64,000 nucleotides of DNA, taken from positions 121,841 through 185,840 of the forward strand of contig JAQTLZ010000002.1 of the NCBI GenBank assembly GCA_028714635.1. The letters are read 5' to 3'. Positions 1,221 to 59,343 of this stretch are shown here, piece after piece. The notes below the pieces were generated by a model, which did no database searches, had not been told where the DNA came from, and was given only the letters and a program-made list of their open reading frames with translations. Source of the stretch: Minisyncoccota bacterium (GTDB taxonomy: Bacteria; Patescibacteriota; Minisyncoccia; Phycocordibacterales; JAQTLZ01). Position 1 is the stretch's first letter, and each line of letters starts with the position of its first letter. A program made the position numbers and the translations under genes.

Positions 1221-1292
1221 GGTGGCTATGGTGTAGCGGCAGCACAAGAGCTTGTGGAGCTTTTAGTCTGGGTTCAACTCCCAGTAGCCACC
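1221..1292 (+). tRNA. tRNA-His (anticodon GTG) with genomically encoded G-1
   Basis: Manual cloverleaf: G-1 at 1221, acceptor GTGGCTA/TAGCCAC, D arm GTGT-AGCGGCA-GCAC, anticodon loop TTGTGGA, T arm CTGGG-TTCAACT-CCCAG, C73. CCA is not encoded (CAA follows). Confidence 0.9.
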
Positions 1293-1325
1293 CAAGGAAA
1301 CAAAACAGCCGAAAGGCTGTTTTGT

Positions 1326-1467
1326 CTTGGGTGGCTAAGTGAGCAACCAAGGTTGCTCACGTCTGGGAGTTGAAGCCCGATTGAGCACACCGCCCTTTTA
1401 AAACAAAAGGGCGGGGTCCAATCGGGGTACTGCTTCTGTAAGAAGCGACATCCCCAGTAGCCACCCA
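1326..1467 (+). ncRNA. tRNA-His-derived structured element containing copy A of the GUACWG/UGUAA motif
   Basis: Outer helix GGGTGGCT(1329-1336)/AGCCACCC(1459-1466). Hairpin 1339-1360. CTGGG(1363-1367)/CCCAG(1453-1457). P-a helix CCCGATTG(1376-1383)/CAATCGGG(1419-1426) enclosing hairpin 1391-1415. GTACTG 1427-1432. Hairpin CTTC-TGTAA-GAAG 1433-1445. Confidence 0.6.
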
Positions 1468-1545
1468 AACAAAACATGTAACCAGTCTCTCGGTATTTCG
1501 TCATTTTGAGTAAAGGTCGCATTACTCAATTCTTAGAAAAAAACT

Positions 1546-2142: not shown

Positions 2143-2610
2143 ATGGACAATGGAACAGAGGCAAAGTACGTGGACGTGGCTGATCGGCTTTGGGAGGAGA
2201 GGAATGCAAAAGACACCATTGTCAGGGACGATGGGTCTGTGATGGCGGTCTTCCGCGTCCTCGAAATCAATGCCCGTCGCAAGGCTCGCCGGGTGATCCT
2301 CGGGATCAAGTTTGTCGGCGGGAAGATTTTCCAGCAGCTCTTCGTGGTCAAGAAGGAGAAGGGTGCCACGGATATCTGTCACGGCGACCGCCTGATCGCG
2401 GTTCATTCCAGTTTCATGGACATCGCCGGGCTCGCCAAGGCTTCGTTGTCAGAGCGTCTCGAGAAGGCACTGGCAATTCTCGAAAACGTCGCTCACAGCA
2501 TCAGGCGCGATCCGGGCCTTCTGGAGAAGATTCGCAATCCCAAGGATTGCCGTTCGGTCAACACAGTGGGCGGGCAAAGGTGGGACAGGCGGCGGATAGC
2601 ATACGCCTAA
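2143..2610 (+). CDS. hypothetical protein (orphan, high-GC cassette 1)
   Basis: ATG at 2143 lies 7 nt after AGGAGGG. 155 aa with protein-like composition. The overlapping alternative-frame ORFs are Arg/Gly/Ser-rich off-frame products of GC-rich DNA. Confidence 0.6.
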   Translation: MDNGTEAKYVDVADRLWEERNAKDTIVRDDGSVMAVFRVLEINARRKARRVILGIKFVGGKIFQQLFVVKKEKGATDICHGDRLIAVHSSFMDIAGLAKASLSERLEKALAILENVAHSIRRDPGLLEKIRNPKDCRSVNTVGGQRWDRRRIAYA

Positions 2611-2653
2611 TTCGACTCAACCCTTCGGAGGGAACAGATTTTCGTTTCAGTCT

Positions 2654-2695
2654 CCCACGGCGGTCCGCAAGGATTGTCCGTGGGTTTTTATTTTT
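2654..2695 (+). terminator. rho-independent terminator
   Basis: Stem CCCACGG(2654-2660)/CCGTGGG(2678-2684) followed by TTTTTATTTTT. Confidence 0.7.
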
Positions 2696-2726
2696 CATGG
2701 GGTATACTTCTTTATATAGATAATCT

Positions 2727-3809
2727 ATGCATCTTCACAGGATTACCCACACTCTCGAGAAATATGAACGGCATATCTCATCAGGAATGCTCGTTTTTGG
2801 ATTTATTTTCGATTCGCTGACGCTTACTCGAATCGATAAATCTCGCGATCATATTATTCTTGCTTTCTATCTACTTCTCGTTCTTCTCTGTATATTTTTT
2901 GTAAATCTTTTTGAAGAGCGCCAATTAAAGGCGGGATTCCTGGAGAAAGCCCAGCCGTGGCTTCTCTTTGCAATCCAGTTTTCTTTCGGAGGACTTTTCA
3001 GCAATTTTATAATTCTTTACGCAAGAAGCGCTTCTTTTCTCTCAAGCTGGCCTTTTCTTCTCCTGCTTTTCGGGCTTCTTGTTGGAAATGAATTTTTCAA
3101 ACGACATTACGCTCGTTTTGCCTTTCACATGAGCGTGTTTTTTGTCGCTCTTTTTTCCTTCCTTATCTTCTTCATTCCTGTTGTCCTGAAACAGATGAGC
3201 GGAAGCATTTTCTTTTTGAGCGGACTTACTACTGTCGTCCTCTTTTTATTTGTCATGTACGAACTGTCTCGGTTTTTTCCGGAAAGGATTGAAGACAGCA
3301 AGAGGACGCTTACATTTAGCATAAGCATCATTTTTCTTCTCATTAACGTTCTTTATATTACAAATATCATCCCGCCTATTCCGCTTTCTTTAAAGGAGAT
3401 TGGTGTTTTTCATTCCATCTATCGCAAAAGCAGTACTGAATTTATAGTGCTTAGCGAAGAGCAAAAAGGATATGCATTCTTGCGTTCCTCCGACACGGTG
3501 AGTTTGAAGGAGGGCGAACCCGCGTATGTGTTATCGGCCGTTTTTGCCCCGACTGGCCTGTCTGTGAAAATCATCCATGATTGGCAATATTATGATGAGA
3601 AAGAGGGATGGGTATCTTCCGCGAAAATTCCTCTTACTGTGGTCGGAGGTCGGGAAGGAGGGTACCGTGTTTATTCAAAAAAGGAGAACATTTCACCAGG
3701 ACTTTGGAGAGTGAACGTAGAGACAGAGCGCGGGCAGGTGGTCGGTAAGATGAAATTTCTTGTTGAAAGAGTAACGACAAGCCCGCAACTCGAGTCTTCT
3801 TTGCGTTAA
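2727..3809 (+). CDS. polytopic membrane protein with a C-terminal DUF2914-like beta domain
   Basis: 360 aa. About 7 hydrophobic helices, then a soluble tail (IHDWQYYDEKEGW..GGYRVYS..PGLWRVNVETERGQVVG) resembling DUF2914. Confidence 0.6.
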   Translation: MHLHRITHTLEKYERHISSGMLVFGFIFDSLTLTRIDKSRDHIILAFYLLLVLLCIFFVNLFEERQLKAGFLEKAQPWLLFAIQFSFGGLFSNFIILYARSASFLSSWPFLLLLFGLLVGNEFFKRHYARFAFHMSVFFVALFSFLIFFIPVVLKQMSGSIFFLSGLTTVVLFLFVMYELSRFFPERIEDSKRTLTFSISIIFLLINVLYITNIIPPIPLSLKEIGVFHSIYRKSSTEFIVLSEEQKGYAFLRSSDTVSLKEGEPAYVLSAVFAPTGLSVKIIHDWQYYDEKEGWVSSAKIPLTVVGGREGGYRVYSKKENISPGLWRVNVETERGQVVGKMKFLVERVTTSPQLESSLR

Positions 3810-3851
3810 TTTGAGTATTCAAGAACTATTCAATAGGATATACTTTCTCTC

Positions 3852-5030
3852 GTGAAAGATTTCATTCGCATTCTTAAATCGCTCATCTCGAAAAGAAATA
3901 TTGCCGGGATGTGCGGATTATTTCTCTTCGGCCTTTTTTTCTTTGGTTTTAGCGCGTTTCATCCGAAAGTTCCTGTGGTAGCGGAGCAAAAAGAAATTGA
4001 TCTGGAAAAAGAAGATCCGAAAACGCTTGTGAAAGCGGTGCGATCCGCCCAAGCTGTTAAAAAGGAAAAATATCTGGTTTCAGCCTCTACTCCGCAATTT
4101 GTACTCCTTTCTTTTGATGGTTCGAAATCAGTAGATATGCTTCGCGAGACCTTGGATTTTGAAAGTCTTCTCTCTCAAGAAGGAAAACCGCTTCACTTCA
4201 CCTATTTCATCAACGCTGCCTATTTTCTAGGCCAGGGTTCCGCGTACTTGTATCAAGCTCCGGGACAGCCGGCGGGGAAATCGCTCATCGGTTTTTCTGA
4301 TTACGTGGCAGACATCTCCCTGCGAGTGGAGGGGTTTAATAAAGCGCTTGAGATGGGAAATGAAGTCGGCTCGCATCTTGCCGGGCATTTCAACGGCACG
4401 AGCTGGTCTGAAGCAGATTGGAAGCAGGAATTCAATTCTTTCAATCTGCTTCTTATAAATATGCAGAAAAATAATCCTTCAGTTTCCATACCGCAGGTGA
4501 ATTTCGGTCCCGATACTATCGTCGGACTTCGGGCGCCTGATTTGGGCGTGAATGCATCGCTCTATAAAGTGCTTCATGAGTATCATTTTCTGTATGACGC
4601 GAGCGGAGTAGCGTCGCTTTTGTCCCGAGATAATTGGCCGAAGAAAGATGGCTATGGGCTTTGGCATTTTCCGCTTGGCCGCGTATCTCTGGGGAAAAAT
4701 CATGTTTCGACGATTTCAATGGATTATAATTTATGGATGATGCAGTCCAATGTTCAGGAAGAGGCGGTAAAGGGGACAGAGCTTTGGCAAAAATATAAGG
4801 ATGATGTTGTTTCTGCCTATATGGATTATTTCAATTCTAATTTCGCCGAGAATCGCGCACCTGTTATTATTGGGCACCACTTCAATAAATGGAATGACGG
4901 GGTCTACTGGGAAGCGATGAAGACATTCGCCGAGAGTGTGTGCGGGCGGGAGAATGTGCGCTGTGTGACTTTTAAAGAGCTCGTAGAGTATTTAAATACA
5001 GAAGGTCCTCCACCTCTCGCAACTCAATAA
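3852..5030 (+). CDS. polysaccharide deacetylase-like (NodB/CE4-type) secreted protein
   Basis: 392 aa with a GTG start. N-terminal TM/signal, FVLLSFDGSKS and VGSHLAGHF motifs. TATACT at 3839-3844 lies 7 nt upstream of the start. Confidence 0.6.
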   Translation: MKDFIRILKSLISKRNIAGMCGLFLFGLFFFGFSAFHPKVPVVAEQKEIDLEKEDPKTLVKAVRSAQAVKKEKYLVSASTPQFVLLSFDGSKSVDMLRETLDFESLLSQEGKPLHFTYFINAAYFLGQGSAYLYQAPGQPAGKSLIGFSDYVADISLRVEGFNKALEMGNEVGSHLAGHFNGTSWSEADWKQEFNSFNLLLINMQKNNPSVSIPQVNFGPDTIVGLRAPDLGVNASLYKVLHEYHFLYDASGVASLLSRDNWPKKDGYGLWHFPLGRVSLGKNHVSTISMDYNLWMMQSNVQEEAVKGTELWQKYKDDVVSAYMDYFNSNFAENRAPVIIGHHFNKWNDGVYWEAMKTFAESVCGRENVRCVTFKELVEYLNTEGPPPLATQ

Positions 5031-17042: not shown

Positions 17043-17588
17043 ATGGCAAAACAAAAAATAGACGAAGGGCGAAATTGGTATGTCATCCACACCTATGCTG
17101 GATATGAAAATGCCGTTGCTCGAAACCTAAAACAGCGCATCGAATCTCTTGGAATGGAGAACAAGATTTTCAACGTGCTCGTTCCAACAGAAAAGAAGAT
17201 CAAAATTAAAGGAGGGAAGCGAGTAGAGGAGGAAGAGAAAATTTATCCCGGATACATTCTTGTGGATATGATCGTGACTGATGATTCTTGGTACGTAGTT
17301 CGAAACACTCCTCGTGTGACCGGCTTCGTCGGCTCTGGAGTATACCCAGTTCCAATCGATCAGAAAGAAGTAGACGCGCTCTTCAAGAGAATGCAATCCG
17401 ATACCGTAAAGCACACGATTGATCTTGCTCCAGAAGACCATGTGATGATCGTTGACGGCCCATTCAAGGATTTGGACGGCAAGGTAAACGAGGTTGATCA
17501 GGAAAGAGGCAAGGTGAAAGTGCTTGTTTCGATGTTCGGACGAGAGACGCCAGTAGAACTCGACTTCCTTCAGGTCAAAAAGGCTTAA
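17043..17588 (+). CDS. nusG: transcription termination/antitermination factor NusG
   Basis: 181 aa. WYVIHTYAGYENAV N-terminal domain and a KOW motif (VDGPFKDLDGKV). Confidence 0.95.
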   Translation: MAKQKIDEGRNWYVIHTYAGYENAVARNLKQRIESLGMENKIFNVLVPTEKKIKIKGGKRVEEEEKIYPGYILVDMIVTDDSWYVVRNTPRVTGFVGSGVYPVPIDQKEVDALFKRMQSDTVKHTIDLAPEDHVMIVDGPFKDLDGKVNEVDQERGKVKVLVSMFGRETPVELDFLQVKKA

Positions 17589-17616
17589 AAAAGTTTAGCT
17601 GAAGCAAACTTTTTTA

Positions 17617-17658
17617 ACGTCGGGCTTTTTTCCTGAAATAATGAAAAAAGCCCGACGT
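17617..17658. terminator. 15-bp inverted repeat between nusG and rplK (terminator/attenuator)
   Basis: ACGTCGGGCTTTTTT/AAAAAAGCCCGACGT with a 12-nt loop. Preceded by a second hairpin, AAAAAGTTT..AAACTTTTT. Confidence 0.55.
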
Positions 17659-17709
17659 AAACTAGTTCAGTTGCAAATAAGAAGAAATTAAGATAACCTA
17701 CACACACTT

Positions 17710-18132
17710 ATGGCAAAGAAAGTAACAAAAAAATTGAAGCTTGTGATCGCCGGGGGAAAGGCAAACCCAGCTCCACCAATTGGCCCTGCGCTTGGTCAGG
17801 CTGGTATTAACATTGGGGAGTTCGTCACCAAGTTCAACGCTGCAACCAAGGATATGATCGGAGACCTCGTTCCCGTACAGGTTTTTGTATACGAAGACCG
17901 AACATTCTCTTTTGTCACCAAGACTCCTCCCGCATCGAGCCTTATCATGAAGGCGATCAAGATCGACAAAGGTTCAGGCAAGCCAAACACCTCAAAAGTA
18001 GGAAAGATCAGCCGAGCGCAGATCAAAGCAATTGCAGAAAAGAAACTTCCTGATTTGAATGCGAATGATTTGGCTGGGGCTATGAAGATTATTGAGGGAA
18101 GCGCCCGCTCAATGGGGGTTGATGTGATCTAA
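17710..18132 (+). CDS. rplK: 50S ribosomal protein L11
   Basis: 140 aa. [19 protein letters not shown] signature. Confidence 0.95.
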
Positions 18133-18224
18133 ATCACATCAACCGACCTTTTGAGACAGAATTCCGCGTATGCGCGGAAATTATGTCCAAAAGGTGTACT
18201 GCTCCTGTAAGGAGTTGATGTGAT
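18118..18224 (+). ncRNA. copy B of the GUACWG/UGUAA motif with flanking triple repeat
   Basis: GTTGATGTGAT (18118-18128, end of rplK), its complement ATCACATCAAC (18133-18143), P-a ACCTTTTG/CAAAAGGT (18146-18153/18188-18195), inner hairpin TTCCGCG..CGCGGAA, GTACTG 18196-18201, CTCC-TGTAA-GGAG 18202-18214, then GTTGATGTGAT again (18214-18224). Confidence 0.6.
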
Positions 18225-18240
18225 TGGATAAATAATGATA

Positions 18241-18278
18241 AAAAGCCCCGCGCCGTAAGGAGCGGGGCTTTTCTTTTT
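18241..18278 (+). terminator. rho-independent terminator
   Basis: GCCCCGC(18245-18251)/GCGGGGC(18262-18268), then TTTTCTTTTT. Confidence 0.8.
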
Positions 18279-18297
18279 CCTGTGATATAGTATTTTC

Positions 18298-20943
18298 ATG
18301 GAAAATTTTACTCCTAAAAATCCAGCCGAACTCGAACTTCAGCTCCAGAAGGCCAGCCAAACTCTTGGAGAATCTATTGCCGTTCCTTCTAAAATAGCAG
18401 ATACGCTTGGTATTTCTTTAGAAGACCTTAAGGTCAAGTTTCCTCGACGATACGAGGCGTATCTCAAGCTTATCCGAGCTGAGAAAAACAACCAGGAAAT
18501 TCCGCAAGAAGATCTCGAACATTTTCAAAAATGGATTCGAGCACTTAACAATCTTGATCGTTATATAGAATCACAAAAGACCGAAATCGGCAGAACCCTT
18601 CGTGAAAAACAAGTAGGCGTTTTCGAGGATATGAGGGATTTCGTGGAAGAGGGTGGCCAGGCTGGTTACGTTAAATTACCTACGGGATTTGGTAAGACTG
18701 TCATTTTCTCTCAATTCGTAGAGGCTCTTGGCTTACGTACACTTATCGCAGTCCCCAAGAAGAATCTTGTCCACCAAACAGCAAAAAGCCTTGAACGGTT
18801 CACTGATCTTGATGTTGGAAAACTGTATCAATATGCCAAAGAGCACGATAAGCCAGTGACGGTTAGTACATACCAATCGATGATAAAGGAAACTGAAGAT
18901 GGAGGATTAAAGCCGGAAGAGTACGACTGCCTTATCTTGGACGAAGCGCATAAAGCACTTGGGCCAAAAAGTGTTCACACCATTGAAAAGTTTGATCATG
19001 CGCTCCGGCTCGGATTCACAGCCACTCCGCAATATTCTGAAACAAAAGGAGTGCAAGATCTTTTGGAAACAGAAATCCACAGCATCTCGATCAAAGAGGC
19101 TGTGGACGATGGGGCGCTTTCCTCCTTTTCGGTCATTTTAGCAAGAACTAAAGTAGACCTTTCGAAAGTAAAGGTGAAATCTGACGGAGAATATGATGAA
19201 AAAGATTTGGAAAAAGCCATAAACGTAGCTTCCCGCAATATGGCTGCAATCAATCTTTATAAAAAGATGTTTAATGGAAAACACGCAATGGCCTATTGCG
19301 CTGGTGTCGAACATGCCCGGGAAGTTGCACGACTTTTCAACGAAGCTGGCATCAAAAGCGTAGCGGTCGCAGGTGAAGACCATCTTTCGGAAGAAGAAAT
19401 GTTGGATATCTTTGAAAAATTCCGTTCAGGAGAGATCAAAGTGATTACCAATGCTGATATTTTTGTCGAAGGATTCGATGAGCCGAAAGCTTCTGTGTGT
19501 CTCAATTTGCGCCCAACCGCATCACCGGTCGTGGCAGAACAGCGGGGCGGTAGAGTTTTGAGACTAGATCCTTCCGATGAGAATAAGCACGCGTTTATCG
19601 TTGACTTTGTTGATGAGGATGAGAAGGCAGATTCCATAAATATTTCTTTTGCAGAAGTTGCGGAAGCTTCTGAATTTCCTCCGAGGACAAACTCGCGTCT
19701 CGGAGAGGTCACTCCAGATCAAACTGAATCAGTTTCTCGCGAGAAAAGCGATATTGTCATCGAAGGGCTGGAGCTTGTAACTGATCCGAATGAAGTTATG
19801 AGGCTCGTACAGAACAAGGCGTCCAGAAAAAAAGGAACAAATGCCGAGCTAGAAGCTCAGGAAATACCGAAATGCCCGGAAGGATGGCTTGCCGTTTTGT
19901 ATTTTTCTGATGACCAACATAAAAAATATGGTTTAAAAAGATATATGGAACGTTCCATAATTTCTAGGGTAGAGCGCAAAAACGCGCATCTCTTCGGTCA
20001 ATTTAGAAGCGAGCGAAAAACGCAAGATACAGAGTGGTTTTTGTCGCCTGAAGCGCAGGCTCTTATTGAAAAGGATATGGCTTATCATGCGGGGTGGGAC
20101 TTGAAAGAGAGAGGATATACTTCTGGGCTTGAGCTCAGTAAAAGATTCGCTCTTTTTAGAGAAAAATTTCGACATTTGGAAGATGAAATATCAGAGGCGG
20201 ATCCGCAAGCGATAATTACCCGTACCTATCAGAGATTTTATTCTGCGGATGCAATAAAAGAAATTGAGGCTGTTTATGGCAAGTTTGCTCCAGAGGGATG
20301 GATTTATCGGGCGGATATCTTCCGTAAATATTTTGGCGGTAGTAAAACTGGGGGTGACGCAGGGAACAAGTTGGTGGAAAAGTTGAAGAAAGAGATGCCT
20401 GATGAAGTCGATGTGTTTGTGAATAGGCCAACTGGCCATAGTTTAGAGTTCTATTCGCCTCGTTTTGTTGAAGAGTTTGGGAAGAGAGATATAACCAGTG
20501 TCTACAAAAGCAAAGAAGAAAAAGCAAAGCGCATCGAGGATAAGAAGCGGGAAGGTCCTCCTTCGGGGTGGTTTCCTGTGAAAGATATTGTTATTTTGTG
20601 TCGAATTAAGGAACCTTTCCTCAGGCGCAAATTGAATGATATGGAGTTTTTGCACGATAATGAAATTAAAAATCTCGCTTTCGGCTTTAAGACGAACATA
20701 CTCTGTGCCACGGCAAAAATAATTCGCCAAATTATCCTGGATGATTGTAAACGTATCAAAACGGGAGAGCCGCCAGCTGGCTGGCAATCAACAGATGAGA
20801 TTTTACAGGCAAGAAGCTTAGAACTGCAAGATTTCTACTATAAACTTCTTTCTTTGCTGCCGACTCCAGAGACTATGAAGAGATATACAAAGAAAGGTGT
20901 CACTGACTACTATTTCAGTCCTGATTTTTTGGCAAAGTTATAA
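18298..20943 (+). CDS. SF2 DEAD/DEAH-box (ResIII-type) helicase with a repeat-containing C-terminal extension of about 430 aa
   Basis: Motif I PTGFGKT, motif II LDEAHKA, motif III FTATPQ, plus a helicase-C region. TGATATAGT -10 box ends 6 nt before the ATG. Confidence 0.8.
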   Translation: MENFTPKNPAELELQLQKASQTLGESIAVPSKIADTLGISLEDLKVKFPRRYEAYLKLIRAEKNNQEIPQEDLEHFQKWIRALNNLDRYIESQKTEIGRTLREKQVGVFEDMRDFVEEGGQAGYVKLPTGFGKTVIFSQFVEALGLRTLIAVPKKNLVHQTAKSLERFTDLDVGKLYQYAKEHDKPVTVSTYQSMIKETEDGGLKPEEYDCLILDEAHKALGPKSVHTIEKFDHALRLGFTATPQYSETKGVQDLLETEIHSISIKEAVDDGALSSFSVILARTKVDLSKVKVKSDGEYDEKDLEKAINVASRNMAAINLYKKMFNGKHAMAYCAGVEHAREVARLFNEAGIKSVAVAGEDHLSEEEMLDIFEKFRSGEIKVITNADIFVEGFDEPKASVCLNLRPTASPVVAEQRGGRVLRLDPSDENKHAFIVDFVDEDEKADSINISFAEVAEASEFPPRTNSRLGEVTPDQTESVSREKSDIVIEGLELVTDPNEVMRLVQNKASRKKGTNAELEAQEIPKCPEGWLAVLYFSDDQHKKYGLKRYMERSIISRVERKNAHLFGQFRSERKTQDTEWFLSPEAQALIEKDMAYHAGWDLKERGYTSGLELSKRFALFREKFRHLEDEISEADPQAIITRTYQRFYSADAIKEIEAVYGKFAPEGWIYRADIFRKYFGGSKTGGDAGNKLVEKLKKEMPDEVDVFVNRPTGHSLEFYSPRFVEEFGKRDITSVYKSKEEKAKRIEDKKREGPPSGWFPVKDIVILCRIKEPFLRRKLNDMEFLHDNEIKNLAFGFKTNILCATAKIIRQIILDDCKRIKTGEPPAGWQSTDEILQARSLELQDFYYKLLSLLPTPETMKRYTKKGVTDYYFSPDFLAKL

Positions 20944-43890: not shown

Positions 43891-44961
43891 ATGAACAATG
43901 AGCCCCAAAATACCCTCATTCATATCTCCACGGGCACGATCATTAAAAGTCTCCTGTTTATTATCCTTGTCCTCGCCCTCTATTTTTTAAGAGATATCGT
44001 TCTCATTATTTTGACGGCGATCGTCATTGCATCAGCTATTGAACCAGCGACTCGATATCTTGTAGAGAAAAAAATTCCTCGGACGTTCTCTGTCGTTATT
44101 CTCTATGTACTTGTTATTTTTGCTCTTGCAGCTGTCTTTTATTTCCTTCTACCGACCCTTCTTTCAGAGACGACAAGTTTCTTGGAGAGAATAAACTCCA
44201 TCGATGTCCTCGGATCTTTGAAAGAACAAGGAATACTCTCTCCTGACAATCCGCTCCAAGGCCTTTCTTCGCAGTTTAATCTGCAAGGAGTTATCGGCTC
44301 TGTTCGGGGAGTGGTGAACCAGTTTTCGAGCGGGTTCTTTAATACTGCAAGCATCCTTTTCGGTGGAGCGCTTTCTTTCATTCTCATATTCGTGCTCTCT
44401 TTCTATTTTGCGGTGCAGGAAGACGGAGTGGAAGATTTTCTTCAAGTAGCATCGCCTATTCGGTATAAAAATTATGTAACGGATTTGTGGAAGCGTTCAC
44501 AGAAGAAGATTGGCCTCTGGCTTCAAGGCCAGCTTCTTCTCGGGCTTCTTGTCGGAGTTTTGGATTTTCTTGGCCTTACTATTTTCGGAATTAAGCATGC
44601 GCTTCTTCTCGCGGTCCTCGCAGCACTTTTGGAGATCATTCCGCTTTTCGGCCCAATTCTCTCTGCAATTCCAGGTGTTGCTATCGCGTTTGTGAGCGGA
44701 GGTACCCCGCTTGCGCTTTTAGTGCTTGCTTTGTACGTCATTGTTCAGCAGTTTGAGAATCATCTCATCTATCCTTTGGTGGTAAACAAAATAGTGGGTA
44801 TTTCGCCGATTCTTGTTATCATTTCGCTCCTTGTCGGTTGGAGACTTGCGGGATTCCTTGGGGTGCTTCTTTCTGTCCCGGTCGCGGCGGTATTCATGGA
44901 ATACTATTCTGATGTGCGAAAGAATAAATTCGGGCACCTCACCAAGGTGAGGGAAGGGTAG
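43891..44961 (+). CDS. AI-2E/PerM (UPF0118) family transporter
   Basis: 356 aa, 7-8 TM helices, LLEIIPLFGPILSAIP signature. TGATATGAT -10 box ends 6 nt before the ATG. Confidence 0.8.
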   Translation: MNNEPQNTLIHISTGTIIKSLLFIILVLALYFLRDIVLIILTAIVIASAIEPATRYLVEKKIPRTFSVVILYVLVIFALAAVFYFLLPTLLSETTSFLERINSIDVLGSLKEQGILSPDNPLQGLSSQFNLQGVIGSVRGVVNQFSSGFFNTASILFGGALSFILIFVLSFYFAVQEDGVEDFLQVASPIRYKNYVTDLWKRSQKKIGLWLQGQLLLGLLVGVLDFLGLTIFGIKHALLLAVLAALLEIIPLFGPILSAIPGVAIAFVSGGTPLALLVLALYVIVQQFENHLIYPLVVNKIVGISPILVIISLLVGWRLAGFLGVLLSVPVAAVFMEYYSDVRKNKFGHLTKVREG

Positions 44962-44977
44962 GGACCCGTCCCGCAAG

Positions 44978-45030
44978 ACCTTGAGTGTTTTGTAATCAAA
45001 AAGCGAAAGGTGTACAGCTCCTGTAAGGAG
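44978..45030 (+). ncRNA. copy C of the GUACWG/UGUAA motif, upstream of metG
   Basis: P-a ACCTT(44978-44982)/AAGGT(45007-45011) enclosing hairpin TTTTG-TAAT-CAAAA. GTACAG 45012-45017. CTCC-TGTAA-GGAG 45018-45030. Confidence 0.55.
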
Positions 45031-45051
45031 GAATATCAAAGACATAATTTC

Positions 45052-57399: not shown

Positions 57400-59343
57400 A
57401 TGAATTATAAAACAAAGAGAGTAGTTGCAGGAGTTCTCGGTTTGGCAATGGCAGTCTCAATGGTTGCTGCTGCTGGAGGAGCTCTTACAGCTTTGGCTTC
57501 GTTCGACGTAAACCTTACTGTCGGCTCAACAGGAGCAGATGTAACGGCACTTCAAAACTGGCTTATTGAGAACGGATTTCTCAGTATCCCAGCTGCGACT
57601 GGCTACTTCGGTCCTTTGACCCAATCAGCAGTTGCTGCTTATCAGACAAGTGTTGGTATTACACCAGCAGCTGGTTATGTAGGTCCAATCACTCGAGCTA
57701 AGCTCAACGCGGGCGGTTCAGTTTCTGGAAACTTCCCAGCAGGTTGTACAAGCGCTTCAGGTTACAGCAGTGTAACAGGATTGCCTTGCGCACCGATTGG
57801 TTTCCCAGCAGGATGTACTTCAGCTTCAGGATTTAGTTCAACAACTGGACAGCCATGTTCGGGTGGTGGATCTTTCCCAGCAGGATGTACTTCAGCTTCA
57901 GGATTTAGCACAACAACCGGAATGTCATGTTCTGGCGGTTCATCAGGAGGTGGTTCACTTTCTGGTGGCGCAGGTGAAATAACAGTAACTGCTAAGACAG
58001 CTGGTACAGAAACCACTGTTGGCGAAGGAAAAGAGGAAAAGGTCCTCGGTATGGAGATAGAGGCTGATGATAACTCTGATGCTGAAATCACTTCTATGCG
58101 ACTTATCGCTACTGTTGACACCGATGGAGCAACAAGATTCAACCGATATGTTGACGAAGTAAAGGTATATATGGGAAGCAAAGAGGTAGGTTCATTGGAT
58201 TCATCTGATTTCTCACGAGATGCAGCTGAATTCACTGGAACCATTTCTCTCCATGGTGCCGTCGTACAGAAAGGCGAGAAAGTTCGATTCTATGTCGCTT
58301 TTGTCGCTAACAACATTATTGATTCTGATGATCTAGACAATACGATCAATCTCGTCGTAAGTCGAATCCGATTTACTGACGCTACAGGAGCAATCCTCAC
58401 AAATGAGGACATTGATACTGATGATGTGACCGTATCTTTCGAAGACGCAACAGAAAGTGATGGAGCAAAGGTGCAATCAGACTCTTCTACACCTGATGCA
58501 CAGATTTTGAAAGTTGAAGATAATAGTAGTTCAGAAGAATACCATATCTTCTCATTCAAGATTAAGTCAGACTCAGGCGCATCTGATATGGAGGTCACAT
58601 CGCTTCCTATCAACCTCTCAATCTACAACGCATCTACTACAGCTATCAACACGGAAGACTTGATTGATGATATGTATGTGATGATTGGTGGAAAGAAGTA
58701 TGATGATTACACATTCGACAACACAAGTATTGCTACAGCTAGTACAGAGACCGCTATAGCTACCTTCACCATAGACGAAGGAGATCTAACAGTTGACGGT
58801 GGTACTACTGAGCAAGCTAAGGTGTACGTCAAATTCGGTAGACAAGAAGACAAATACGCTGCTGCTGATACAACAGTTACAGCTTCTGTCGTCGGTTCTA
58901 CTATTGACGCAGAAAACTCTAACGGTGATACCATTGACTTGACTGGTACTGTCACTGGAAAGACAATGACAGCTGCTATTTCTGCTGCTGAAGTCACAGA
59001 CTTCACTTGGGCAGTAGGAACTGGCGGAACATACATAGACTTCTTCTTCACAGTAACAGCTGGCGATGAAGACTTCGATGTTCTTACAGCAAGCATTGCT
59101 TCTTCTACATCTGGTAATGCAACAACATCTTCTGGAACTCTCACAAAGAGCTCTGGCGATGATGTAACTAGCATTTCAGGAGGATTCACTGTCGCTTCTG
59201 GAGATACAACAACGTTCAAAGTTAGATACTTGGTAACAGGTTCTAACGGAACAATCTCAACAGTAACGATTACTTCTGTGGCTGGACAAGAGGTACCTGA
59301 CAACAAACAGGAATCTCCTACAGCAACAAGAAACGTTTACTAA
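57400..59343 (+). CDS. secreted peptidoglycan-binding-domain protein with Cys-repeat and Thr/Ser/Asp-rich beta region
   Basis: 647 aa. Signal/TM, PG_binding_1-like segment (GADVTALQNWL..GYFGPLTQSAVAAYQ), and three FPAGCTSASG(F/Y)S..TG..C repeats. Confidence 0.75.
   Translation: MNYKTKRVVAGVLGLAMAVSMVAAAGGALTALASFDVNLTVGSTGADVTALQNWLIENGFLSIPAATGYFGPLTQSAVAAYQTSVGITPAAGYVGPITRAKLNAGGSVSGNFPAGCTSASGYSSVTGLPCAPIGFPAGCTSASGFSSTTGQPCSGGGSFPAGCTSASGFSTTTGMSCSGGSSGGGSLSGGAGEITVTAKTAGTETTVGEGKEEKVLGMEIEADDNSDAEITSMRLIATVDTDGATRFNRYVDEVKVYMGSKEVGSLDSSDFSRDAAEFTGTISLHGAVVQKGEKVRFYVAFVANNIIDSDDLDNTINLVVSRIRFTDATGAILTNEDIDTDDVTVSFEDATESDGAKVQSDSSTPDAQILKVEDNSSSEEYHIFSFKIKSDSGASDMEVTSLPINLSIYNASTTAINTEDLIDDMYVMIGGKKYDDYTFDNTSIATASTETAIATFTIDEGDLTVDGGTTEQAKVYVKFGRQEDKYAAADTTVTASVVGSTIDAENSNGDTIDLTGTVTGKTMTAAISAAEVTDFTWAVGTGGTYIDFFFTVTAGDEDFDVLTASIASSTSGNATTSSGTLTKSSGDDVTSISGGFTVASGDTTTFKVRYLVTGSNGTISTVTITSVAGQEVPDNKQESPTATRNVY
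57733..57945 (+). repeat. three tandem 69-72-nt coding repeats
   Basis: Units start at 57733, 57802 and 57874. Units 2 and 3 share an identical 35-nt stretch, TTCCCAGCAGGATGTACTTCAGCTTCAGGATTTAG. Confidence 0.85.

Follow-up and report, generated by a model that had tools for sequence, protein, structure and literature searches.

A mirrored tRNA-His 3′ end and a multi-copy family of short structured elements in Patescibacteria

The region downstream of the tRNA-His gene in a 64,000-nt stretch of a Minisyncoccota genome (contig JAQTLZ010000002.1, positions 121,841 to 185,840; the whole stretch is referred to below as the window) carries the 3′ end of the tRNA a second time in antisense and a third time in sense, arranged around a conserved hairpin core. 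On balance, positions ~1297–1452 together with the repeat at 1453–1476 are best read as one copy of a proliferating insertion element with target duplication. The element is a structured unit of about 100–175 nt that occurs in multiple copies in Patescibacteria (the candidate phyla radiation, CPR), and the family was previously uncatalogued; a full-text literature search, sequence strings included, found no description of it. An earlier, sequence-only reading of the window had treated the locus as a single case, whereas its core, copy A, belongs to a large family found across the Patescibacteria.

Although much of bacterial diversity falls within the Patescibacteria, whose genomes are very small, a large family of structured elements has apparently remained unannotated in them. 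The family accounts for spurious partial tRNAs and gene fragments in CPR assemblies. If the arrangement is a signature of mobility, it would indicate a new and possibly programmable insertion mechanism that copies DNA or RNA; if it has a function, an RNA module is here coupled to the ends of tRNAs and mRNAs in a new way. The analysis also provides a covariance model for annotation and natural pairs of filled and empty sites for experiments.

The element behind tRNA-His

ARAGORN and Rfam identify a single tRNA in the whole window, an intact tRNA-His (GTG) on the plus strand (1222–1293, with G-1 at 1221; 59.4 bits with the Rfam tRNA model). The segment termed X1 (TTCAACTCCCAGTAGCCACCCAAG, 1273–1296) covers its T loop, the 3′ strands of the T stem and acceptor stem, C73 and the trailer CAAG. 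It is followed by a terminator-like hairpin of 11 bp with a GAAA loop (arms ACAAAACAGCC at 1300–1310 and GGCTGTTTTGT at 1315–1325), detected by repeat analysis and folding, which has a GC core, an A tract ahead and a U-rich tract behind, and which was not called by a simple terminator scan. Equivalent hairpins are present in L150, L127, L030, L028 and L086 (L-numbers are the labels of the comparison loci).

This hairpin is the centre of a long palindrome (1273–1374), the downstream arm of which contains the mirror image of X1 in two blocks, each 100% complementary to a part of it. The first block (CTTGGGTGGCTA, 1326–1337), designated S0′ (TAGCCACCCAAG), mirrors the acceptor 3′ strand, C73 and the trailer without a mismatch, and the second (CTGGGAGTTGAA, 1363–1374), designated S1′ (TTCAACTCCCAG), does so for the T loop and the T-stem 3′ strand. 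Repeat analysis reveals a hairpin between them, H (1339–1360), with the arms GTGAGCAACC (1339–1348) and GGTTGCTCAC (1351–1360) joined by AA. The conserved core, motif copy A (1375–1446), follows on the same strand and is recognised by the covariance model R1 with 54.2 bits (E = 2.7e-15). The linker GACATC (1447–1452) connects it to X2 (CCCAGTAGCCACCCAA, 1453–1468), a 16/16 direct copy of the T-stem 3′ strand, the acceptor 3′ strand and CAA. Within the 64 kb, CCCAGTAGCCACCCAA is present only at 1280–1295 and 1453–1468, and none of 100 shuffled sequences contained two matches. The duplication runs on into the trailer, where, after a gap of 3 nt, ACAAAACA at 1469–1476 repeats positions 1301–1308. 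By analogy with L150 and L168, X2 is read as the displaced original 3′ end of the tRNA. The insert of ~160 nt contains no open reading frame (ORF), and a promoter and terminator consensus scan of 1100–1700 found nothing, including no sigma-70-like promoter.

The sequence-only reading had placed X1, the GAAA hairpin, the mirror blocks and the second direct copy at these same positions, base for base. The hairpin between the blocks had also been located correctly, but its arms are 10 nt each and not 8 bp.

The conserved core and its distribution

A 22-nt signature (GGNGUACNGCUNCUGUAAGNAG) is common to positions 1375–1446 and two further places in the window. An exact-pattern scan of public genomes, one per species, detected it at no fewer than 120 loci, nearly all in Patescibacteria; the patescibacterial carriers among the listed matches belong to Paceibacterota/Parcubacteria lineages and Saccharibacteria. 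The genome and metagenome scans were single exact-pattern scans, giving counts that are lower bounds and biased to the searched signature, and all genomes compared are metagenome-assembled. In the window the R1 model recognises three copies and no more, each on the plus strand (1375–1446, 18145–18215 and 44977–45031; copies A, B and C). Among the comparison loci it has 126 matches in 100 loci, and two or three within 8 kb are common. The window and the tRNA-His loci (366 kb) together suggest a density of very roughly one copy per 20–70 kb. Tandem and nested copies occur in L023, L073 and L082, while two copies on one contig in L041 are near-identical from GUGAG to AAGAAG and diverge right outside this unit.

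The core is built from a long hairpin, P1/P2, and a second one, P3 (CUCCU-GUA-AGGAG), with the junction GUAC between them. In copy A, P1 (1376–1383/1419–1426) encloses P2 and is followed by GUAC (1427–1430) and a P3 of the form GCUUCU-GUA-AGAAGC (1432–1446). This structure is supported by covariation: in 57 distinct copies 90.6% of cells are paired compared with 74% in shuffles, there are 168 two-sided changes, and none of 500 shuffles reached this level. The P3 pair that was left free in the search pattern is C-G in 44 copies, U-A in 12 and G-C in 1. In 109 of 118 copies the motif strand has the better fold of the two strands, and it is also richer in G-U pairs, suggesting that the active form is the motif strand, either as RNA or as single-stranded DNA. 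We infer that the core functions as an RNA. With its invariant sequence CUGUAAG, the P3 loop resembles an anticodon-loop pattern (U33, GUA, A37), a resemblance that is only a lead. Rfam gave no match to the small self-cleaving ribozymes (hammerhead, twister, pistol, hatchet, HDV-like).

Several identities for the core were considered and rejected. A Shine–Dalgarno role for the AAGGAG of P3 is inconsistent with the distance to start codons (11–25 nt) and with the covariation of the pair to AAGAAG or AAGCAG. On inspection by eye, the strand lengths fit no permutation of a hammerhead-type junction. Besides tRNA, no Rfam 15 family reached its gathering score in the window, and a search with copies A, B and C in E-value mode returned nothing credible. 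The best Rfam match, trpB, was discarded at 29 bits, where 59 are needed, with only a generic hairpin and terminator aligned. Nineteen other loci yielded tRNAs and RNase P only. A viral origin was likewise rejected, the signature being absent from the 2.9 million viral contigs of IMG/VR.

A second conserved module, AUGUGAGGCGUA-loop-UACGAUGAACGUU, was noticed 10–40 nt after the motif in L014, L041 and L109, all from Saccharibacteria.

Association with tRNA genes

A tRNA lies within 500 nt of 53 of the 125 copies, and these tRNAs are predominantly on the same strand as the motif (54 versus 10 on the opposite strand). Usually the tRNA ends 85–145 nt ahead of the signature or starts 27–75 nt past it. 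At least 12 isotypes are represented, including Lys, Thr, Arg, Val, Leu, His, Tyr, Trp, Gln, Gly and Ser. Copies behind tRNAs share the order seen in the window, namely tRNA, terminator-like hairpin, S0′, H, S1′, core and X2, in which X2 usually begins at T-loop position 57. Hairpin H, an element-derived branch with a recurring AG-UAAG...CUUAC-GU flavour, is found in the same place in most of them, always at the acceptor/T-stem junction, from which the D and anticodon arms of a genuine tRNA emerge.

The mirrored segments are specific to each locus. When each copy is compared with its own tRNA, the median length of the longest reverse-complement match is 12 nt; it is 5 nt when copies and tRNAs of different loci are paired (95th percentile 9). 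Direct matches reach 27 nt. The mirrored T loop reads AGUUGAA at tRNA-His (T loop UUCAACU), ACUUGAA at tRNA-Leu, AAUCGGA at tRNA-Thr and AGUCGAA at tRNA-Val; since these loops are non-palindromic, the segment is truly antisense. Direct repeats of the tRNA 3′ end flank the insert in the window (1280–1295 and 1453–1468) and in L003, L004, L021, L073, L077 and L120.

It is extremely unlikely that the arrangement is a one-off replication error, that is, a template switch at the tRNA terminator of this locus only and without biological meaning. Direct–inverted–direct triplications are typical of fold-back template switching, but the same architecture and the same core recur behind dozens of tRNAs in different genomes. 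This recurrence refutes the error as a stand-alone explanation, although template switching may still generate the copies. Simple snap-back copying of the tRNA end was also rejected, as it cannot put the element-derived hairpin H between two host-specific segments.

Two tRNA loci have a more complex organisation. In L107 (−985 to +40 relative to the motif), ~930 nt separate tRNA-Gly from the core and X2; this stretch contains a 105-aa ORF with no Pfam match and a second pseudo-tRNA 3′ end, and it is either a larger cargo or a product of stacked insertions. In L028 (~3650–3900), a complete tRNA gene is found within another tRNA-like gene, bracketed by the inverted repeats ctgttaaat/atttaacag, and a motif copy is located just downstream.

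Predicted folding

The RNA 1321–1476 is predicted to form a four-way junction (−83.2 kcal/mol, z = −8.8, with none of 200 shuffles equally stable). Its parts are the closing helix and hairpin H, a CUGGG/CCCAG helix of 5 bp, and another two hairpins. S0′ (1326–1337) provides the 5′ strand of the acceptor-like closing helix, while the CTGGG of S1′ pairs with 1453–1457 in the T-stem-like helix. An acceptor-like helix had been proposed before with a length of 8 bp; the pairing exists, but it spans 11–12 bp and can be extended to ~16 bp. The closing helix is part of the minimum-energy fold of 23 of 28 tRNA-linked copies, and it would serve as a scaffold for the core. In the longer co-transcript 1215–1480 the minimum-energy fold puts the mirror back on the tRNA 3′ half instead. 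Minimum-energy folding thus reproduces both of the alternative pairings anticipated from the sequence, the forward one in the shorter RNA and the backward one in the co-transcript.

The folds support a tRNA shape of the copy A RNA at the level of predicted form only. Neither strand of the element (1326–1468) is called as a tRNA by ARAGORN or by Rfam RF00005, and, as had been anticipated, only the tRNA-His gene (1222–1293) scores as one. The earlier suggestion of a tRNA-mimic non-coding RNA (ncRNA) therefore holds for the predicted shape but not for detection as a tRNA. A tRNA-like gene on the minus strand was rejected, being disfavoured by fold energies and G-U counts.

Copies at rplK and other protein genes

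Copy B is located at the 3′ end of rplK on the plus strand (18118–18224; R1, 68 bits). Its X1 (GTTGATGTGAT, 18118–18128) consists of the last codons of the gene; the stop codon (18130–18132), the antisense X′ (ATCACATCAAC, 18133–18143), the core (18145–18215) and X2 (GTTGATGTGAT, 18214–18224) follow, and a terminator lies behind the copy at 18240–18272. The same architecture is linked to rplK in L011, L023, L032, L108 and L114, and a truncated copy is present in L029. In these copies the last L11 codons and the stop codon pair with X′ as a hairpin, the core comes next, and after it there is a second copy of the codons, which is sometimes decayed.

In the window (17043–20943), nusG and rplK are not followed by rplA; copy B, the terminator and an ORF for a ResIII/DEAD-type helicase are found instead, and rplA is either elsewhere in this genome or missing. 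In L023 (4760–5140, minus strand) three tandem X-X′-core units are located behind rplK, the second core being split by ~100 nt between AAGGU and UAC.

Copy C (44946–45031, core 44977–45031, plus strand; R1, 53.7 bits) lies between a permease gene and metG, and the last five codons and the stop codon of the permease gene are inside the element. It represents, together with about 70 others, class 1, in which GGUGAG, a hairpin and CGCAAG stand at the start in place of S1′. Many class 1 copies are located between exact direct repeats of 13–45 nt of local sequence. Examples include gene starts of 12 codons, from a glycosidase gene in L005 and from msrA in L095, and the leader and first 13–40 nt of a tRNA (L111, L048 and L112). 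The partial copy always abuts the element, and the intact gene lies beyond a spacer.

The flanking duplications are 5–45 nt long, and both their sequence and their length vary from locus to locus. The duplicates have decayed at tRNA-Glu in L018 and L083 and in the X2 of L108 and L114, and they are still identical at tRNA-Ser in L001, L094 and L112. Orientation relative to neighbouring protein genes is unbiased, and the neighbours are functionally diverse (EF-G, LepA, KsgA, topoisomerase I, FolD and adenylate kinase); on these grounds a cis-regulatory leader of the downstream gene was rejected.

These duplications bear on the possibility that the insert is a remnant of integrase-mediated integration, in which the tRNA 3′-end copies would be the attachment (att) sites attL and attR of an element deleted down to ~160 nt. 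Direct repeats of a tRNA 3′ end that start in the T loop, with inserted DNA restoring the tRNA, are the textbook signature of integration, and such repeats do flank the insert; moreover, L107 has ~930 nt and an ORF between the repeats, and a serine recombinase gene adjoins the empty site in L192. However, the same core is also found between 5–45-nt duplications of unrelated sequences (gene starts, tRNA 5′ parts and the end of rplK), and hence there is no constant att core. No integrase was found within or next to the examined copies, neither an inverted copy nor a hairpin such as H belongs to att sites, and the pattern is absent from the viral contigs, making such a remnant very unlikely.

Filled and empty sites

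Some 57 of the 63 metagenomic tRNA-His loci that share the 3′ 24-mer are empty, with an ordinary trailer and terminator, while L127, L150 and L168 are filled and have the architecture of the window. In L150 the antisense segment matches the trailer of the tRNA-proximal copy, and the distal copy has a different trailer and, after it, a terminator-like hairpin of its own, taken to be the native one. The inserted block thus appears to run from a replacement 3′ end through the hairpin and the antisense segment to H and the core. In L148 there is a lone extra acceptor copy. The same tRNA-His flanks enclose other cargo in L174 (~2590–2810, minus strand), where GGGAGTTGAA ... CCCCAGTAGCCA surround a GC-rich segment of ~150 nt with no Rfam match; the tRNA-mirroring frame may thus carry more than one kind of payload.

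The synteny of tRNA-His with a Band_7 gene is kept in relatives, whose Band_7 proteins are 89–93% identical. At this locus L184 has the same sequence as the window, and L189 and L192 lack the element; L188 is filled but decayed, its S1′ and X2 relics matching the window-type T arm and not the present L188 tRNA. Both states, which the sequence-only reading had suggested comparing, therefore occur among related tRNA-His loci. Flanks identical on both sides were found only in the same species (L184), the relatives having no shared downstream genes. At rplK, where the flanks of the two loci are collinear, L108 carries the element and L128 does not, and the alignment of these two loci allows the downstream copy of L108 to derive either from the coding end or from native intergenic sequence.

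Other features were noted around these sites. The empty Band_7/tRNA-His site of L192 (1479–5042) has a LAGLIDADG-like ORF upstream and a large serine recombinase gene directly downstream. In the window, positions 2100–2700 form a GC island (55–58% versus ~42% around it) with an ORF (2125/2143–2610) lacking a Pfam match; an NCBI contig with the Band_7/tRNA-His/SHOCT block ends inside this island, which may be foreign or hard-to-assemble DNA. Two tandem repeats of 72 nt, 86% identical, are located at 57801–57944.

The distribution of filled sites also bears on whether the element is a host regulatory or processing device. The antisense would then toggle between the gene end (the tRNA 3′ half or the stop-codon region of rplK) and the downstream sense copy, and folding of the core would report on or control how the upstream RNA matures and terminates or how stable it is. 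Thermodynamics permits both pairings, the X:X′ hairpin at rplK covaries with the C-terminal codons of L11 in six loci (Saccharibacteria, Paceibacterota and unclassified metagenome-assembled genomes), the copies are co-oriented with tRNAs, and the partial tRNA-Ser copies are unchanged across genomes. However, most tRNA-His genes and one rplK locus do without the element, it stands in either orientation beside protein genes of unrelated function, its flanking duplicates and closing strands decay (L168, L188, L108, L018 and L083), and a terminator-like hairpin separates the tRNA from the mirror. Such a device is rather unlikely. The processing switch for tRNA-His that had been proposed earlier is affected in the same way: its two pairings exist, but the intervening hairpin, the many tRNA-His genes without an element and the occurrence of the core beside unrelated genes speak against it.

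Mode of proliferation

The multiple copies, the mirroring of the own tRNA, the filled and empty loci and the decaying duplications are best fitted by a tRNA-targeting mobile element with target duplication, one of the possibilities raised when the locus was first read. The element would have inserted into the 3′ region of tRNA-His, leaving the gene intact and its displaced 3′ end (X2) downstream. In a transcript of the tRNA strand, S0′ and S1′ would pair with X2 to give an acceptor-like helix of 12–16 bp and a T-stem-like helix of 5 bp; these closing helices would hold the core in a four-way junction of tRNA shape, with the antisense kept off the real tRNA. New copies would arise by a copying process in which 5–45 nt of the target are duplicated and, at the 3′ ends of genes, an inverted copy is made as well; candidate routes are synthesis primed by the target or by a hairpin, and template switching at the palindrome of the terminator. 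Such a process is suggested by the variable length of the duplications, by G-rich junctions before UGAG and by the direct–inverted–direct layout, and cut-and-paste transposition or a classical integrase seems a less likely source.

Several points weigh against a proliferating insertion element. No enzyme was identified and the element itself has no ORF; the sole recurrent transposase-like neighbours are Y1_Tnp genes, in 6 of 120 loci, with different palindromes of their own. We know of no mechanism that gives the order target, inverted target, insert, target with H between two host-specific antisense segments. The empty sites could be precise losses through direct-repeat recombination. The element stands behind rplK in 7 of the 8 rplK loci compared (one copy truncated; 6 of the loci, from both Saccharibacteria and Paceibacterota, were retrieved via the motif), and some partial copies track the gene across genomes, as at tRNA-Ser in L001, L094 and L112; both observations look more like conservation or selection than selfish mobility. 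The argument from G-U pairs cannot tell RNA from single-stranded DNA, the upstream terminator-like hairpin would curb read-through transcription, and no sigma-70-like promoter was found in 1100–1700.

A bolder proposal, which we put forward tentatively and consider unlikely, envisages a previously undescribed type of mobile unit: at each landing, the element would write its target into itself, in antisense and sense, around a conserved RNA or single-stranded-DNA scaffold. It might use hairpin- or target-primed synthesis or an RNA-guided step. If true, the element would be a self-reprogramming, tRNA-shaped 'guide and scaffold' and a possible natural programmable insertion system in the smallest bacterial genomes.

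Comparison with known systems

To our knowledge, no described mobile element or ncRNA is tailored to its neighbour gene by antisense and sense copies of a tRNA 3′ half around a conserved core and hairpin, although parts of the arrangement are found in several known systems. Integrative elements that target tRNA genes (the att sites of phages, islands and satellites) likewise restore the tRNA 3′ end, leave a displaced direct copy of it, usually from the T loop, at the far junction, and occupy tRNA loci in tandem and nested fashion. Unlike them, the present element is only 100–175 nt long and has no integrase, its payload is a conserved structured RNA core, its repeats differ per locus, many of its targets are not tRNAs, and it contains an extra inverted copy of the target. 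No recombinase recurs beside the copies, nor is there a constant att core.

The REP/REPIN, Correia and RPE repeats, which resemble miniature inverted-repeat transposable elements, are also short, non-coding, multi-copy, hairpin-rich and intergenic, often at gene ends; they share compensatory variation among copies, and Y1 (IS200-like) transposase genes occur in the same genomes. The present element differs from them in the lack of constant terminal inverted repeats and of a target duplication of fixed length, in its flanks, which are long copies of neighbouring gene ends, and in its strong same-strand link to tRNAs. The unit shared by the L041 pair, GUGAG...AAGRAG, has no terminal inverted repeats, and its flanking repeats are host-derived and variable. 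A RAYT/REP origin was considered and rejected: Y1_Tnp genes are enriched near the copies, yet those in 6 of 120 loci are flanked by other palindromes (e.g. GTACGAGGTCCGACCTCGTAC), and only weak R1 matches are found beside one of these genes. The Y1_Tnp (IS200-like, RAYT-like) loci, L075 (3060–4300), L044, L097, L105, L078 and L001, have arrays of their own short palindromes; in L075 the locus, including its upstream palindrome array, starts directly after a motif copy.

Among tRNA-like ncRNAs (mascRNA/menRNA, bacterial YrlA, the tRNA-like domain of tmRNA and viral tRNA-like structures), coaxial acceptor-like and T-stem-like helices with a side arm are likewise found, and the 3′ strand of the element has the sequence of a genuine tRNA 3′ end, discriminator base included. 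In contrast to these RNAs, the element is invisible to tRNA models, lacks D and anticodon arms, has a two-hairpin core in place of the T loop, and carries a mimicry that is copied from the adjacent tRNA gene and differs at each locus.

The bridge (seek) RNAs of IS110/IS1111 elements and the exon-binding and intron-binding sites (EBS–IBS) of group II introns also combine a structured RNA with target-matching segments split by a stem-loop, the matching segment standing beside the target once inserted. By comparison, the present element has no DEDD recombinase, reverse transcriptase or intron domains, and its matches are 12–24 nt long, different per locus and predicted to be base-paired within the RNA. 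No ORF for a DEDD/RuvC-like recombinase was found near copies A–C and none recurs in the loci; there was no Rfam match to group I or II introns, and the unit is only ~100 nt. It is quite unlikely that the element is guided by RNA or single-stranded DNA to target itself, with S0′ and S1′ as guides around a scaffold hairpin that are rewritten at each new site, a reading that partly coincides with the bolder proposal above. Such guidance would fit a conserved scaffold (H and the core) between variable target-matching segments, antisense 5′ and sense 3′, at 12 or more tRNAs and rplK, and an antisense segment immediately 3′ of the sequence that it matches, as in EBS–IBS pairing. It is opposed by the lack of an adjacent recombinase or reverse transcriptase, by the predicted pairing of the guides with X2, which leaves them unexposed, by class 1 copies, which hold sense and not antisense copies of downstream genes, and by the reported absence of group II introns from Patescibacteria (PMC13011429).

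We know of no mechanism that would rewrite such guides. Hairpin-centred direct, inverted and direct copies are produced by fold-back and template-switch events (quasi-palindrome correction and DUP-INV-DUP rearrangements) and by HUH rolling-hairpin replication, with variable lengths and microhomology at the junctions. Such events, however, are sporadic and have no conserved payload, whereas the element described here delivers the same core and hairpin H each time.

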